A stretch of 44,056 bases of DNA from Faecalibacterium sp. CAG:74 (GTDB taxonomy: Bacteria > Verrucomicrobiota > Kiritimatiellia > RFP12 > UBA1067): NCBI GenBank assembly GCA_963588415.1, contig CAVAHB010000127.1, positions 1-44,056 on the forward strand. The letters run 5' to 3'. Below the pieces are notes generated by a model that was not told where the DNA came from, did not search any database, and saw only the letters and a program-made list of their open reading frames with translations. Position 1 is the stretch's first letter. Each line of letters opens with the position of its first letter. A program made the translations under genes and the position numbers. Positions 2,392-44,056 of this stretch are shown here, one piece after another.

Positions 2392-4059
2392 TCAGTATGA
2401 CCGACCGTCGCGGCGGCTGAGATAATTGTCGATGGCGTGTTGAAGGACGCGCTCGCCGCCGGGTGTCGGGTAGTCGCCCGTGAAGTACCAGTCGCCCGTC
2501 GTCGCCGGGCATGCCGCACGGAGCGACTCCATCGTCTGGAAGATCACGTCCACCCGCGCATTCATTTCGGGCGGCGTCAGCAACTCGGCAATGGCCTTCG
2601 ACAGGACGGGGAGCGGAATCGCCGCGTAGGCGGCGCGGAGTTCGCCCGGCGTGCGCGGCACTTCGTCGCCGCGCAACTTCAACAGCGCCTTGAAGGCGAC
2701 GAGTTCGCCCAGCGACGACATGTCGATTCCGTAGCAGTCCGGATAGGCGATTGGCGGGGCGGACGAGACGACGACGATGCGCTTCGGCCCGAGCCGGTCG
2801 AGCATCGGAAGAATGGCGTTTCGCATCGTATTGCCGCGCACAATCGAGTCGTCCAAGACGACCAGCGTATCCACGCCCGGCGTGACGAGCCCGTAGGTGA
2901 CGTCGTAGACGTGCTTGTAGAACTCGCGTCGGGCGGCGGCGTCCGCAATGAAGGTGCGGAACTTCGCGTCCTTCACGGCAATCTGCCCGAAGCGGACGGG
3001 CCGCCCCTCTGCGAGGCCTTCAGTCCAGAGGGCCTCCATCAGTCCGTGGAAGGCGACCTGCGCGGAATTGGGGATGTAGCTGAAGAAGGTGTGGGCGAAG
3101 TCGTAGCCGACGGTTTCGAGGATCGGCTTGGCAAGCGCCGCGCCGAGGGCCTTGCGCTCGCGGTGGATGTCCGCGTCGTTTGCACGGGAGAAGTAGATGC
3201 GCTCGAAGACGCAGCTGCGCTTTTCCGCCGCGTCCATGATCTTCACGAACCGCACGTCACCCGAGGGCGAGACGATCATCGCCTCGCCCGGCACGAGTTC
3301 GCGCACGGCCTCGGTGCCGCAGTTGAACGCCGCCTGAATGGCGGGCCGCTCCGACGCCGCAACGGCGACCTCGTCATCGACGTAGCAGTAGCCGGGGCGG
3401 ATTCCGTGCGCGTCCCGAATCGCGAAGCTCCACCCGTCCGCCGTCATTCCGCAGAGCGTGAACGCGCCGTCCAGACGCGGCAAAAGGGACTGAAGAGCCT
3501 GAATGAGGACGTTTCCGCGATCCTCCTCGCCCTGCATTTCCGCGTGGAGCATGCACGAGGCGAGCCATTCGCAGATCAGGTAGCCGTCGGCCTGCGATTC
3601 GGGGAACTTGCCGATGTCGATGTAGGCCTGGAACATCTCGTGGGTGTTCGTCAGGTTGAAGTTCCCGGCGAGGAAGAGCGTGCGGCGCAGGCGCGGAGAC
3701 TTGTGGACGAACGGATGGCAGAAACCGACGTCGCCCTTCCCGTAGGTCGCATAGCGCAGATGGCCGAGGAACAGCGTCTCGCCGATGAGCCGCCGCTTCG
3801 CAATCTGCGAGAGCAGGTCGGCGAGCGGGTTCTCGACGGCAGACTTCAGGATATGATACGCGCTCGACCCCGGTTCGGGATCGAGCGTGAGGGTTGCCGC
3901 ACCGGCGCCGTCCTGCCCGCGATTGTGCTGCTTTTCGAGCAGGAGCGAGAGTTTCGTGCCGCCGAAGTCCGCCGCGCCGTACTTCTCGCGGTAAAAGGCG
4001 GCGCCCTTGCGCAACCGCAAGAGCGTCACCGCACATTCGTGCTTGATTTGGTCCGACAT
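2392..4059 (-). CDS. purF: amidophosphoribosyltransferase
   Basis: ORF 2392..4233, trimmed to the ATG at 4059 (MSDQIKHEC..., a short propeptide before the catalytic N-terminal Cys). Has the class II glutamine amidotransferase fold and the PRPP motif VVLDDSIVRGNT. Confidence 0.9.
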   Translation of the reverse strand: MSDQIKHECAVTLLRLRKGAAFYREKYGAADFGGTKLSLLLEKQHNRGQDGAGAATLTLDPEPGSSAYHILKSAVENPLADLLSQIAKRRLIGETLFLGHLRYATYGKGDVGFCHPFVHKSPRLRRTLFLAGNFNLTNTHEMFQAYIDIGKFPESQADGYLICEWLASCMLHAEMQGEEDRGNVLIQALQSLLPRLDGAFTLCGMTADGWSFAIRDAHGIRPGYCYVDDEVAVAASERPAIQAAFNCGTEAVRELVPGEAMIVSPSGDVRFVKIMDAAEKRSCVFERIYFSRANDADIHRERKALGAALAKPILETVGYDFAHTFFSYIPNSAQVAFHGLMEALWTEGLAEGRPVRFGQIAVKDAKFRTFIADAAARREFYKHVYDVTYGLVTPGVDTLVVLDDSIVRGNTMRNAILPMLDRLGPKRIVVVSSAPPIAYPDCYGIDMSSLGELVAFKALLKLRGDEVPRTPGELRAAYAAIPLPVLSKAIAELLTPPEMNARVDVIFQTMESLRAACPATTGDWYFTGDYPTPGGERVLQHAIDNYLSRRDGRSY

Positions 4060-4076: not shown

Positions 4077-6248
<2,172 letters not shown>

Positions 6249-6323: not shown

Positions 6324-6630
6324 CTGCCCTTCTGCGGCGGCGGACTGCCGCTCGGTCGGCACAGGCAGACCAAAAATGTAAATCCGCCGCGACCCCTATT
6401 ACACGCCCCGCACAGACTTTGTAAAACTCCATTCGGACGTGACGGCCGCGGTCGGGGAGGTTCTTCTTCCCATTCAGTTTCAGAATCGCGCCCGACTTTC
6501 CGCGTCAGTTCCACCAAATCTGTCCTCACTTGTCCTCAAACGACTTCCGACGGTGTGAATAATGCCAAATCCGCCCCCGTCTGTCAACGGGGACGGGGAA
6601 AAAATCTTCCCCTTCCGAAGCGCGACGGAC

Positions 6631-6759
6631 TGCACCCGGGTGCAGACACCTTCTGGACCCGGGTGTAGACACCCTCTGCACCCGGGTGTAGACACCCTCT
6701 GCACCCGGGTGTAGACACCCTCTGCACCCGGGTCCAGACACTCTCTGCACCCGGGTGCA
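6631..6759. repeat. six tandem 23-bp repeats, each carrying a 14-bp dyad TGCACCCGGGTGCA or a near variant
   Basis: CCCGGG cores at 6635, 6658, 6681, 6704, 6727 and 6750, an exact 23-bp period. The unit is TGCACCCGGGTGYAGACACCCTC. The first and last copies are perfect 14-bp palindromes. Confidence 0.95.
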
Positions 6760-6918
6760 GTTCGTAGAGAAAATCAACTGCCGAGTTTAGGTTGACAGGA
6801 GGGGTTGTGGCGCGGTGCGGCATCCTAGTACTAAGGAGTACGGGAAGGCCCCATTTGCCTCCGTGGCCAGAATCGGGTCTCGGTAAAAACGGACAAACTC
6901 CAGCCAGCACGATTGCCC

Positions 6919-13247: not shown

Positions 13248-13252
13248 CGGCC

Positions 13253-13471
13253 TTATTCGCCCAAATCCTTGATTGTGTCTTCGCTAATCGAATCCGCCGC
13301 GCTCTTCGCGCTCGACCCTTCCTGCGAAGAGAGGGCTTCCGTCGCGCCCGCCGTCTTCTTGGCAATTGCGCGGCTCAGGTAGGTGAACACGGAGATTAGC
13401 GCGATTGCAATCAAACAGACGATGATGATGTATTCAACCATCGTCTGACCTTTTCTCAATGCTTTCATCAT
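13253..13471 (-). CDS. Flp-family type IVb pilin
   Basis: 72 aa, MMKALRKGQTMVEYIIIVCLIAIALI. The G/xxxxEY Flp prepilin motif is present, and AAGGAGA lies upstream of the start. Confidence 0.7.
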   Translation of the reverse strand: MMKALRKGQTMVEYIIIVCLIAIALISVFTYLSRAIAKKTAGATEALSSQEGSSAKSAADSISEDTIKDLGE

Positions 13472-13504
13472 GTTCTTTTCTCCTTCTTAGTAGTTGCCTT
13501 TGGT

Positions 13505-13666
13505 TTACGGATAGTCCGACCTGACGAGTTCCTCGGTTCGTTCCGCCGACTTCTGCGCGGCCCGGACGAGATAGCCCATCACGCCGACCACCGCCAGCAA
13601 GATCGCGACGCACAAGACGTATTCAAGTGCCGCCTGACCCCGCCTACTATCACCGAACACGCGCAT
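13505..13666 (-). CDS. second Flp-family pilin (53 aa; below the ORF-track size cutoff)
   Basis: Hand translation gives MRVFGDSRRGQAALEYVLCVAILLAVVGVMGYLVRAAQKSAERTEELVRSDYP, which has the G/QAALEY Flp motif. The start codon is uncertain because the ATG overlaps a TGGTATAAT element; a GTG at 13660 is the alternative. Confidence 0.6.
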   Translation of the reverse strand: MRVFGDSRRGQAALEYVLCVAILLAVVGVMGYLVRAAQKSAERTEELVRSDYP

Positions 13667-13673
13667 TATACCA
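13665..13673 (-). promoter_or_regulatory. extended -10 element TGGTATAAT upstream of or overlapping the flp genes
   Basis: Minus strand reads ATGGTATAATG, immediately after the lptF/G stop codon. Confidence 0.4.
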
Positions 13674-13675
13674 TA

Positions 13676-27870: not shown

Positions 27871-27996
27871 ATTATCTTATTCCTCAATCCTGTTTTGCTG
27901 AAACTTTTTCCAAGAATCTTTCATCCGCCGCACAGCCATCCTTCATCGCACAAACTTTACCGACCATAATCTACACATTTCCAACTAGTTGATGTA

Positions 27997-28005
27997 ATTA
28001 TACCA
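27997..28005 (-). promoter_or_regulatory. extended -10 element TGGTATAAT for the sigma-fusion/GH operon
   Basis: Minus strand reads ATGTCA-N17-TATAAT, with TGG preceding the -10. This gives a leader of about 120 nt to the ATG at 27870, which has GAGGA upstream. Confidence 0.5.
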
Positions 28006-28164
28006 AATCTGAGGCAACCTGACATTAGCCTGAAGTTTACTCGTTTTTCACTGGGGGCCCGATTCTGACCACGGAGGCAATTGCAAGACTTCCTGCGGGC
28101 GGGCGCGACACCCGCCCCGACCGTGCGAATACGGTAGGGTCACGCATCCCGCGTGACCGCCGCA

Positions 28165-28200
28165 CTTTCGGCGCGAAGACCCCTTCCTGTCCGACCGCCG
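28165..28200 (+). repeat. conserved 36-bp junction motif, copy 1 (CTTTCGGCGCGAAGACCCCTTCCTGTCCGACCGCCG)
   Basis: Near-identical copies lie at 28732-28767 and 43943-43982. Copies 1 and 3 are each followed within 3 bp by the palindrome array. Confidence 0.9.
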
Positions 28201-28202
28201 AG

Positions 28203-28415
28203 CCCATATATGGACAACCCCCGAGTCCATATATGGAGAAACCGAAATCCATATATGGACAACCCCCGAGTCCATATATGGAGAAATCAAAATCCATATA
28301 TGGAGAAACCGCTGGCCATATATGGAGAACGAGTTGTCCATATATGGATTTGCGTTTGTCCATATATGGAGAACGGTTTGTCCATATATGGACAGCACCC
28401 GAGTCCATATATGGA
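28203..28415. repeat. array of ten 12-bp palindromes (TCCATATATGGA) at 22-23 bp phasing
   Basis: CCATATATGG occurs at 28204, 28227, 28249, 28272, 28294, 28316, 28338, 28360, 28382 and 28405. Spacers fall into two classes, CAACCCCCGAG-like (11 nt) and GAAAYC...-like (10 nt). This gives a partial 45-bp higher-order unit. Confidence 0.97.
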
Positions 28416-28482
28416 CAAGTCCAACGCTCCGAGAGGGGGTTCGCCGCGCTCCCCGAGGGGCCAAACGCGGGCTTTCCCGTAC

Positions 28483-28499
28483 TCCTTATATATATAGGA
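28483..28499. repeat. variant AT-core site TCCTTATATATATAGGA
   Basis: It has the same TCC...GGA flanks as the array palindrome, but the core is T(TA)5, 11 nt rather than 6. It lies 68 bp after the last array unit. Confidence 0.8.
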
Positions 28500-28540
28500 T
28501 ACCACACAGGCATCACGAACGCGGTTGCGGCTCGGATTTT

Positions 28541-28665
28541 ACCACTGAACACACTGAACGGCCTTCGGCCGACACAGAATACACTGAACTTGCCATCGGG
28601 GGGAGGCCGAGCCGACTTTCAGTGTGTTCAGTGTGCCGCGAAGCGGCTTCTGTGTGTTCAGTGGT
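28541..28665. repeat. 125-bp nested-hairpin element, copy 1
   Basis: A perfect 13-bp outer stem, ACCACTGAACACA (28541-28553) paired with TGTGTTCAGTGGT (28653-28665). Inner mini-hairpins are GGCCTTCGGCC (28560-28570) and GCCGCGAAGCGGC (28635-28647). The arms are built from ACACTGAAC sub-repeats. About 111 of 125 positions match 43660-43784 with no gaps. Confidence 0.9.
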
Positions 28666-28691
28666 CGAAACCGCCGGGCGGGGCGAGTTTT

Positions 28692-28714
28692 ACCACTAAA
28701 CACACTGAACGGCC
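28692..28714. repeat. left-arm fragment of the 125-bp element
   Basis: ACCACTAAACACACTGAACGGCC, preceded by the same GTTTT as copy 1. It diverges into a CGACGAAAGTCG mini-hairpin. Confidence 0.75.
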
Positions 28715-28731
28715 GACGAAAGTCGCCCTCT

Positions 28732-28767
28732 CTTTCGGCGCGGCGAACCCTTCCTGTCCGACCGACG
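28732..28767 (+). repeat. conserved 36-bp junction motif, copy 2 (not followed by an array)
   Basis: CTTTCGGCGCGGCGAACCCTTCCTGTCCGACCGACG. Confidence 0.9.
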
Positions 28768-28771
28768 CGCC

Positions 28772-28789
28772 CAATCCTGTCAATCCTGT
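28772..28789 (+). repeat. tandem 9-mer CAATCCTGT x2
   Basis: A direct repeat immediately after junction motif copy 2. A third exact copy lies at 27885-27893, in the leader of the sigma-fusion gene. Confidence 0.8.
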
Positions 28790-28838
28790 CTAAAACCGCC
28801 GCGCCGAGAACGGGTAAACTCCGGCAGATGTTGGCTCT

Positions 28839-28868
28839 TTGACACGAAGTGTGCGGTTTTGGTATAAT
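28839..28868 (+). promoter_or_regulatory. strong sigma-70 type promoter for the acyltransferase gene
   Basis: TTGACA (28839-28844), an 18-nt spacer ending in TGG, then TATAAT (28863-28868). The ATG at 28877 is only 8 nt after the -10 and has no SD, a leaderless configuration. Confidence 0.65.
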
Positions 28869-28876
28869 AACCCGCA

Positions 28877-43659: not shown

Positions 43660-43784
43660 GCCACAGAACACACTGAACGGCCTTCGGCCGACACAGAACA
43701 CACTGAATCTGCCTCCGAAGGGAGGTGAAGCCGACTTTCAGTGTCTTCAGTGTGCCGCGAAGCGGCTTCTGTGTGTTTAGTGGT
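43660..43784. repeat. 125-bp nested-hairpin element, copy 2
   Basis: Aligns without gaps to 28541-28665, with about 14 mismatches, 9 of them in the central segment. The central loop forms CCTCC-GAAG-GGAGG. Both mini-hairpins are conserved exactly. Confidence 0.9.
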
Positions 43785-43942
43785 AGAAACCCCGCCCCGC
43801 CCCCTCTACCTTTCTACAACTCAACACGGCCAACAAGCGCCGCGCCCAACCCCTGCGAACTCCGCGGCTCTGCGCGAGTTCCACGGCCAGCACCACAGTA
43901 CAGAGTAGCACACGAGTTCCCCTCCAGTTCAAAAAAAGTTGC

Positions 43943-43982
43943 CTTTCTGTCGGCGCGGCGAACCCTTCCTGTCCGACCGCCG
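43943..43982 (+). repeat. conserved junction motif, copy 3
   Basis: CTTTCTGTCGGCGCGGCGAACCCTTCCTGTCCGACCGCCG, followed 2 bp later by the second array. Confidence 0.9.
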
Positions 43983-43984
43983 TA

Positions 43985-44056
43985 CCACCCTATGGAGAAA
44001 TCGAAATCACTAGATGGAGAATGCGTACTCAATATATGGAGAAAGTCAAATCAATA
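43985..44056. repeat. second, degenerate 22-bp-period array, truncated by the window end
   Basis: ATGGAGA occurs at 43992, 44014 and 44036, an exact 22-bp period. The units CCACCCTATGGAGAAATCGAAA, TCACTAGATGGAGAATGCGTAC and TCAATATATGGAGAAAGTCAAA resemble the TCCATATATGGAGAAACCGAAA units of array 1. A fourth unit starts at 44051. Confidence 0.85.

Follow-up and report, generated by a model that had tools for sequence, protein, structure and literature searches.

The array and its setting

Contig CAVAHB010000127.1 is a complete metagenomic contig of 44,056 bases, which formed the whole of the analysis for this genome and is referred to here as the window. A tandem array of ten short palindromes (the main array) was found in a 1,006-bp gap between two divergent genes. 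The minus-strand neighbour encodes a 1,144-amino acid (aa) protein with an N-terminal sigma-70 region 2 (sigma-fusion) and is followed by glycoside hydrolase (GH) genes, and the plus-strand neighbour is an acyltransferase gene. Named homologues of the contig genes point to a Kiritimatiellae bacterium. The contig also carries genes for a type III glutamine synthetase (glnA), a class II aldolase (fba), an aminoimidazole ribonucleotide (AIR)-synthase-type protein (purM-like), dihydroorotate dehydrogenase (pyrD), LptF/G, a Mur ligase, tRNA-Cys and several glycoside hydrolases, and the 44-kb contig as a whole consists of chromosomal housekeeping DNA.

The core of the array, CCATATATGG, occurs ten times as an exact match (positions 28204, 28227, 28249, 28272, 28294, 28316, 28338, 28360, 28382 and 28405), with zero copies in the window outside 28204–28414 and a chance expectation of 0.00 in 100 dinucleotide-preserving shuffles. 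Successive cores lie 23, 22, 23, 22, 22, 22, 22, 22 and 23 bp apart (mean 22.33 bp), and Tandem Repeats Finder (TRF) returned periods of 22 and 45. The perfect 12-mer TCCATATATGGA is present in eight of the ten units, units 1 and 6 deviating at its first base. These exact counts agree with an earlier interpretation made from the letters alone (the sequence-only reading), which had described ten cores at 22–23 bp and eight full 12-mers. The unit count rests on a metagenome assembly, and the copy number could be slightly off.

Three further statements of the sequence-only reading held in part. The sites had been described as palindromic, which is true of the core but not of whole units: every one of the ten units has an A directly 3' of the core (position +10), with G/C-A-A next to it, and the left flank is w-G-T. 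As A[G/C]AA is found only 3' of the core, the units are strand-asymmetric. The palindrome itself comprises the perfect 12-mer, extends up to 16 bp in one unit, and is loopless. The spacers, which are 10–11 bp long and belong to three related classes, had been said to alternate in a 45-bp higher-order unit; this alternation was seen in units 1–4 and 9–10 but not in units 5–9, which carry the third class in the middle of the array, and the 45-bp consensus matches 78% overall. The pair of 45-bp double units at the left end of the array is the most recent tandem duplication within it. All sites had also been placed on one DNA face, which is approximately but not exactly correct, since 22.33 bp is 2.13 turns of B-DNA and, at 10.5 bp per turn, gives a drift of ~46 degrees per unit and about one full rotation across the array. 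An array of bound protein would form a slow superhelix unless binding alters the twist.

The main array has a G+C content of 43%, against 64% for the genome. Its single strand folds at -118 kcal/mol (z = -14.9), which was discounted as evidence because any palindrome array folds in this way. An Rfam search at the gathering threshold returned tRNA-Cys alone, leaving the array without a family match, and permissive thresholds gave only sub-threshold eukaryotic microRNA-precursor matches, which are spurious and arise from the hairpin-like repeat. A known RNA family was ruled out for the array, these matches lying far under threshold. A NifA-type TGT-N10-ACA site was likewise rejected, as both TGT and ACA are found in just one of the ten units. 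Open reading frames (ORFs) across the array had no Pfam match and failed the codon-position G+C filter of a rough gene map, so a coding explanation was discarded, in keeping with the earlier statement that the array is not explained by any gene.

Constraint on the core

When the ten units were aligned on the core, pairwise differences numbered 0 of 450 in the core and 252 of 450 (56%) in the spacers, and there were zero substitutions across the 100 core positions. An 11-bp core, CCATATATGGA, is invariant across units, and the spacers have diverged, and therefore the core sequence itself is constrained. Neutral decay was excluded because the 100 core positions are untouched despite the presence of a recent duplication together with old, diverged units. 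A purely structural need, such as hairpin formation or melting, is disfavoured, as compensatory or AT-for-AT changes would be expected and none is present. The contrast between invariant core and diverged spacers indicates that the core is most likely a site recognised by a protein, consistent with the protein binding that the sequence-only reading had envisaged.

Orthologous loci in relatives

Twelve contig look-ups covered acyltransferase, sigma-fusion and glnA orthologues, those of the two flanking genes ranging from 70 to 89% aa identity. The main array and its motif were absent from every acyltransferase or sigma-fusion orthologue locus examined. Acyltransferase orthologues with 88–89% identity lack an array, have upstream gaps of 96–165 bp and are preceded by a different gene, and those with ~70–72% identity lie in tight operons behind thrS or another gene. 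The orthologue with 78% identity (L029; L numbers denote loci in other genomes) has a 530-bp upstream gap that holds different arrays, both of period 22, made up of four units of the palindrome AAAGTATSATACTTT and at least five units of GGTGCGCGGCAGATTTTTGGCA. The latter is a direct repeat with a T5 tract and is broken by an assembly gap; the former is palindromic. Sigma-fusion orthologues with 73–82% identity have either a short gap or one of 900 bp whose content is unrelated.

The only stretch common to the window and the sigma-fusion orthologues is 27873–28021, which includes the minus-strand promoter and is the sole part of the gap kept in the orthologous locus L038. On the other side, TGGTATAAT of the acyltransferase promoter is kept upstream of the orthologues in L026, L028 and L029. 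The two sites that the sequence-only reading had described as strong promoters, at 27997 and 28839–28868, were both found as promoter-like sites by a promoter scan (10/12 and 12/12) and are backed by conservation in relatives. The whole 1-kb region beyond these proximal promoters is missing at orthologous loci. The main array, which begins ~180 bp upstream of the minus-strand -35, arose in its own lineage, and relatives do without it.

Because the orthologous loci of both flanking genes lack the array, it is not a conserved regulatory element. The cooperative operator array suggested by the sequence-only reading was accordingly ruled out, on synteny, as a conserved operator of the flanking genes. 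The comparison of orthologous intergenic regions, which that reading had also proposed, gave the array as missing from the examined relatives, most of which have short upstream regions.

Related arrays and shared modules in the contig

The rough gene map contained three genuinely long divergent intergenic regions, and all three hold an array with a 22–23-bp period. The main array, which had earlier been treated as unique, is therefore one of three such arrays in the contig and belongs to a class that is also present in related genomes. An apparent 428-bp gap at 13250–13675 (minus strand) was not considered genuinely intergenic, because it contains two small hydrophobic ORFs, Flp-pilin-like by eye only, which adjoin TadE/TadG-like genes.

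The array that is cut by the contig end, 15.6 kb from the main array, is related to it. Its units are degenerate (ATGGAGAAATCGAAATCA...) and match those of the main array at 79%, with TCAATATATGGA at 44029; the part common to the two arrays is ATGGAGAAA. A sequence designated module M lies directly before an array, with orientation kept, in two of its three copies, so that the composite of M and array occurs twice (28160–28415 and 43942–44056). The -10-like part of M varies over the three copies (CGAG, CGCG and CGTA).

Three other modules were identified. Module U was observed directly upstream of the -35 at two unrelated promoters. Module S contains a palindrome, TCCTTA..TAGGA, in which the arms are kept and the centre varies (TATATA or GTAC), and it includes ACTCCTTA, which is similar to the 3' end of 16S rRNA. 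Module H is built of repeated CACTGAAC-like words and two small internal GC hairpins; its RNA folds at -82 kcal/mol (z = -6.2), it had no Rfam match, and it could be a miniature inverted-repeat transposable element (MITE)-like repeat or a structured RNA. The long intergenic regions of the contig are mosaics of such common modules.

The third array (the 6630 array) lies at 6630–6760, between the divergent glnA and fba genes, and its half-sites, TGCACC/GGTGCA, are identical to those of Escherichia coli NtrC, though they are spaced by N2 rather than by the N5 of NtrC sites. It lies ~40 bp upstream of a sigma-70-like TTGACA..ATTATT (6555–6591, minus strand) and 310–440 bp upstream of the sigma-54-type glnA promoter TGGCACGGTCTGTGCT (6322–6307, minus strand). 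The latter is the best sigma-54-type promoter match in the window, with the true start of glnA ~59 nt downstream, and has a homologous element in relatives. This arrangement suggests that activator sites, once amplified, could account for at least some of the arrays. Relatives with a 96–97% identical GlnA, however, have 180–245 bp upstream without an array, and the upstream segment common to them and the window is promoter-proximal and excludes the 6630 array, which is likewise an add-on.

Arrays and the same core in other genomes

One genome per species was scanned for two cores 22–23 bp apart, which gave 25 loci, many of them ordinary site pairs just upstream of apparent small-gene starts (by eye). 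True TCCATATATGGA[C/G] arrays with unrelated spacers were found in three Kiritimatiellia/'Verrucomicrobia' metagenome-assembled genomes (MAGs; L005, L025 and L020), with seven units upstream of a Kdo-transferase/TPR gene in L005 and eight units upstream of RelB/YoeB and RelB/ParE modules in L025. At least four loci with the core were found in MAG BRZ_RB_bin17, and three of these are copies of a non-coding dispersed element of 700–890 bp. The copies are 80–89% identical, occur in both orientations, and have a four-unit array at the centre (GCTACCATATATGGTAGC / TACCCTATAGGGTA, 23-bp spacing). The CTAC...GTAG ends seen in this element are reminiscent of the tags of repetitive extragenic palindromes (REPs), yet they belong to the stem.

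In Prevotellaceae MAGs, GTCCCATATATGGGAC arrays are present at several loci (at least three in RUG192), and in two genomes of this family three related 22-bp units of GTCCCATATATGGGAC plus spacer (66 bp, in frame) are located within an ORF labelled proA-type (glutamate-5-semialdehyde dehydrogenase) by eye, with no domain check. A core that recurs beside unrelated genes, dispersal within genomes and insertion in frame mark a mobile or amplifying repeat and not a regulon. Three adjoining arrays of 22-bp period were also observed in Prevotella (L001; 4602–4798), their units shifting gradually from ATGCCATATATGGTGTTAGCAC through ATGCCGTGTATGCTGATAGCTT to GCTCATATCAGCATCAGCTAAC.

Arrays of this period are also present in related Kiritimatiellae, where the cores differ and are mostly palindromic. 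The clearest example, in L052 (19733–19901), consists of 7.7 units of TCTAGGCTWAGCCTAC between a terminator-like hairpin and a TGTGGTATAAT promoter, and its unit GTCTAGGCTAAGCCTACAAGGT has period 22 and a palindromic core; the gene downstream encodes an amino-acid-permease/histidine-kinase/receiver fusion. The non-coding arrays that had not been selected on period, namely the 6630 array, the two in L029 (5612–5692 and 5776–5894), that in L052 and a second array in L003, all have periods of 22–23, a striking agreement, though in a small sample of about half a dozen independent arrays. Coding repeats had periods of 12, 15, 21 or 30, save for one low-scoring two-copy repeat of period 24.

Scanning metagenomes for perfect 12-mers next to each other gave just five short pairs, all unrelated, and the three matches in IMG/VR were likewise unrelated site pairs. 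One of these viral contigs (L036; 70% G+C) has a CGCCATATATGGCG pair at 3762–3793, just upstream of an apparent histone-H3-like start (ARTKQTARQ...), and another single site follows the same pattern; the pair looks like an unrelated viral promoter motif. As the main array had no match in the phage collection either, a phage origin was ruled out.

Features of the locus

The coordinates of the features described are collected in Table 1. In addition to the scanned promoters, a conserved element, GAAAAAAGTTTCAGCAAAACGC-N-GAATAAGATAGTATG, was observed to abut the sigma-fusion start codon in every orthologue. This could be another promoter, proximal to the gene, from which a leaderless or very short-leader transcript would start, and is possibly the autoregulated extracytoplasmic function (ECF)-type promoter.

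Table 1. Positions of the arrays, modules and promoters in the window and of the features located in other genomes
Feature	Position	Strand	Evidence
Main array, 10 units, extended motif wGT-CCATATATGG-A[G/C]AA, period 22–23 bp	28203..28415	.	exact matches, shuffles, TRF, per-column conservation
Two 45-bp double units, 96% identical	28204..28293	+	repeat search, spacer list
Module M (..TTTCGGCGCGrmGAmCCCTTCCTGTCCGACCGCCG..), directly 5' of main array	28160..28206	+	repeat search, blastn
Module M, second copy, no array following	28727..28773	+	repeat search, blastn
Module M, third copy, directly 5' of second related array	43942..43988	+	repeat search, blastn
Degenerate related array, period 22, conserved ATGGAGAAA, cut by contig end	43990..44056	+	TRF, sequence
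Module U, just upstream of minus-strand promoter -35	28030..28083	-	blastn, aligned copies
Module U, second copy, upstream of fba promoter	6852–6905		blastn, aligned copies
Module S (TTCCCGTACTCCTTA-TATATA-TAGGAT)	28462..28507	+	local alignment score 50 vs shuffle maximum 28
Module S, inverted copy, centre GTAC instead of TATATA	6818–6858		local alignment
Module H, hairpin element, ~131–141 nt	28533..28673	+	repeat search, RNA fold
Module H, second copy, 89% identical	43661–43791		repeat search
6630 array, 6 x CTGCACCCGGGTGCAG, period 23, different core, glnA-fba divergent region	6630..6760	.	TRF, sequence, repeat search
Sigma-70-type promoter of sigma-fusion/GH operon, ATGTCA-17-TATAAT, 10/12	27997..28025	-	promoter scan
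Sigma-70-type promoter of acyltransferase, TTGACA-18-TATAAT, extended -10, 12/12	28839..28868	+	promoter scan
GAAAAAAGTTTCAGCAAAACGC-N-GAATAAGATAGTATG element	window 27875–27930; L038 1425–1475; L039 4285–4330; L040 1060–1110	- (window)	
L029 arrays upstream of acyltransferase orthologue	5612–5692 and 5776–5894		
BRZ_RB_bin17 element copies	L007 80–933; L012 79–743; L015 652–1495		
In-frame Prevotellaceae units, adding ~22 residues (ACPIYGTAESHIWDTRVPYMGQ)	L016 576–636; L017 5523–5583		

Interpretation and alternatives

The reading preferred here, at a probability a little under one half (about 0.45), takes the array to be a cluster of protein-recognised palindromes that is specific to the lineage and was amplified in tandem, with the behaviour of REPs and bacterial interspersed mosaic elements (BIMEs) and an iteron-like period, within a mosaic system of intergenic repeats. 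The core would be kept through recognition by a trans-acting, probably dimeric DNA-binding protein conserved in the class, which might be an architectural protein, a repressor-like protein or an enzyme that spreads the element. Growth of the array would have come from unequal exchange, or from slippage, involving 22/23-bp and 45-bp units. In the register of about two turns, neighbouring bound dimers would touch, forming a nucleoprotein filament that winds slowly round the helix. Any effect on the flanking promoters, such as insulation or architecture, would be secondary, and it would be dispensable because relatives do without the array.

Several observations weigh against this interpretation. 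No binder of the core was identified, and the motif count covers only 44 kb of the genome. The array lacks the GTAG/CGTC tag of REPs, its left flank being wGT and its right flank A[G/C]AA, and the string TGTC occurs at only three units, there within the palindrome. At 12–16 bp, the palindrome is shorter than described REPs and has no loop. A fixed 22–23-bp period over unrelated cores is not a described REP property, and its constancy is left unexplained. Ten perfect cores would also fit a recent, lineage-specific, dedicated regulatory array.

This last possibility is the main rival, although a rather unlikely one. The array would be a dedicated cooperative operator or upstream-activating array for a dimeric transcription factor encoded elsewhere, arising by recent amplification of an ordinary operator and controlling one or both of the divergent promoters (sigma-fusion/GH operon and acyltransferase). 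The invariant palindromic core, the phasing at roughly two turns and the position of palindromes in helical register between two conserved promoters are consistent with such a role, as is the parallel with the 6630 array, in which NtrC-like half-sites lie upstream of a conserved sigma-54-type promoter. However, the array is missing upstream of all examined orthologues of both genes, the core stands beside unrelated genes in other genomes, and the conserved region upstream of glnA is proximal to the 6630 array and excludes it. Ten tight sites are also unusual for a bacterial operator. Pfam scans of the 44-kb contig revealed no transcription-factor gene or candidate binder near the array, in agreement with the sequence-only reading. 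No sigma-54-like promoter was found in 27871–28876, and a sigma-54 enhancer role for the main array was excluded. The remaining readings are less likely than a dedicated regulatory array. It is quite improbable that the array has no sequence-specific binder and is a neutral or structural minisatellite, such as a supercoil sink, melting- or cruciform-prone DNA or phased bending. A location between divergent promoters, where negative supercoils arise, AT-rich cores in a G+C-rich genome, the very stable single-strand fold and the lack of conservation in relatives would suit this. The untouched core against 56% spacer divergence is nevertheless not neutral evolution, compensatory or AT-to-AT changes would be tolerated, a loopless 12-bp palindrome is a very poor cruciform, the fold z-score is automatic for a repeated palindrome, and the cores of other arrays in the class are GC-rich (CACCCGGGTG and TAGGCTWAGCCTA).

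Still less probable is iteron-type DNA, either as a replicon origin or centromere or, more plausibly, as a chromosomal copy of an iteron or centromere that would titrate the Rep or Par protein of a plasmid and so serve as an incompatibility decoy. Ten units at 22–23 bp match the classical iteron period of 22 bp, and same-period arrays of different sequence are hypervariable among relatives. A search of 72,556 plasmids gave a sole similarity (E = 2e-3), to the Enterococcus faecalis plasmid NZ_CP028839.1, in which 3.5 22-bp iterons (ATATATGGAGAAAAAACTGTTT) lie directly upstream of a Rep_3 initiator gene. The 13-mer ATATATGGAGAAA is common to these iterons and three of the ten units, and a fourth unit misses its last base. 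This lone, borderline match may be coincidental; of the other three arrays compared with plasmids, two had no match and one had a weak match (E = 2e-2) with no annotated feature. Iterons are also directional and not palindromic. The sequence-only reading had likened the array to iterons or centromeres and had raised the question of a plasmid and of Rep or ParB-type genes. The 22-bp architecture and the resemblance to Rep_3 iterons bear out part of this, but an origin or centromere function does not stand. Neither an initiator (Rep_3, RepA or any other) nor a ParA, ParB or ParR domain turned up when essentially all ORFs of the contig were scanned against Pfam. No DnaA box (TTATCCACA-like site) was found in 27871–28876, and no AT-rich unwinding element in the array region, where the lowest G+C content over 100 bp is 0.40–0.45. 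As these are lacking and the setting is one of chromosomal housekeeping genes, a functional origin or centromere was ruled out. The least probable of the alternatives is a repeat RNA transcribed from module M, one copy of which resembles an ECF promoter (GAACC-N16-CGTA), that would sponge up a protein through AUGGA/GGAG motifs or yield 22-nt units on processing. The position of M directly before both related arrays in the same orientation, the strand-asymmetric units and the ATGGAGAAA that both arrays have in common agree with transcription, but the -10-like part of M is not conserved, no terminator was found 3' of the main array, there is no genuine Rfam family, GGA would be placed in stems and not in loops, and the core is conserved exactly, with no compensatory change.

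Returning to the amplified, protein-recognised palindrome cluster, it would be one member of a broader group if there exists, in gut Kiritimatiellia and possibly in certain Prevotellaceae, a class of chromosomal arrays so far undescribed that are hypervariable, have their own, mostly palindromic cores and a fixed 22–23-bp period, and sit in mosaic regions upstream of promoters. This generalisation is a speculative one and unlikely as it stands. The fixed period could reflect a dedicated, filament-forming family of array-binding proteins. Alternatively, the arrays could be captured plasmid iteron or centromere arrays serving as Rep/Par-titrating decoys, that is, a heritable anti-plasmid incompatibility memory.

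If such a class exists, phased palindrome arrays are what a little-studied phylum of the gut uses to build intergenic regions that are long and evolve fast, which would point to a new DNA-binding protein or protein family recognising them and would bear on the organisation and insulation of divergent promoters, on the spread of short palindromes and possibly on the incompatibility of plasmids. Of greatest interest is the constant 22–23-bp period of arrays with unrelated cores in the clade. The invariant 12-mer TCCATATATGGA is an ideal bait for DNA pull-down or DNA affinity purification sequencing (DAP-seq), and the arrays could be used as markers of strains. Should the array be nothing more than a selfish repeat of REP-like kind, it would usefully extend the REP repertoire to Kiritimatiellae but be no surprise.

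Comparison with known systems

In geometry, iterons come nearest to the main array, which resembles those of Rep_3 plasmids in its tandem 22-bp units, the common 13-mer and the directional right flank. It differs in having ten palindromic units in a chromosomal housekeeping setting, whereas the plasmid iterons are present in 3.5 copies, are not palindromic, and lie beside a rep gene and an AT-rich region. Among plasmid centromeres, F sopC consists of 12 x 43 bp with an inverted repeat in each unit, and R1 parC of 10 x 11 bp. The array is similar to these in having about ten phased repeats, each predicted to bind a dimer, a ~45-bp higher-order unit that holds palindromes, and a predicted filament or superhelical assembly. 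It differs in that the contig has no parA, parB or parR, several cores occur on one chromosomal contig, and the array is not kept in relatives.

Known NtrC-type enhancers have 2–5 non-identical sites that are conserved among relatives. They share with the arrays multiple phased palindromes upstream of promoters, and the 6630 array has NtrC-like half-sites near the sigma-54 glnA promoter, but the arrays consist of 6–10 near-identical units and are missing in relatives with 96–97% GlnA identity. CRISPR arrays have repeats of ~23–50 bp and unique spacers of ~26–72 bp, in contrast to the 12-bp repeats and related 10–11-bp spacers of the array. The core fits, by inspection, the consensus of the eukaryotic CArG box (MADS/SRF, CC(A/T)6GG), but the genome is bacterial, the contig showed no gene with a MADS domain, and the fit is most likely coincidental. 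Among the top-ranked matches of a literature search on the 10-mer, CArG boxes were the sole DNA-binding site treated as a subject, and most of the others were apparently eukaryotic or viral vector or construct studies, none of the top-ranked papers being bacterial; a search on repeats in Kiritimatiellae found nothing.

Of the known systems, REPs and BIMEs come nearest to the array in kind. REPs have stems of 5–13 bp, loops of 2–20 nt and an unpaired GTAG or CGTC (TGTC/CCTC) tag at one end, and the dRS3 repeats of Neisseria have been classed as CGTC-1 elements (Di Nocera et al. 2013, PMC3733652). They occur in tandem clusters, as in-frame intragenic dimers or groups and as arrays flanking gene clusters, and are abundant in Opitutus terrae, a member of the Verrucomicrobia (PMC3733652). 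As the tag is absent, the palindrome shorter and loopless, and a fixed period undescribed for REPs, the array was not filed as a member of this family. No gene for a REP-associated tyrosine transposase (RAYT; IS200/IS605-like Y1 transposase) was found within the contig, where all exact cores lie in one array. The array is nevertheless like REPs and BIMEs in its short palindromes in tandem clusters, its location in mosaic intergenic regions, its hypervariability among relatives and the occasional occurrence of related units in frame within ORFs.

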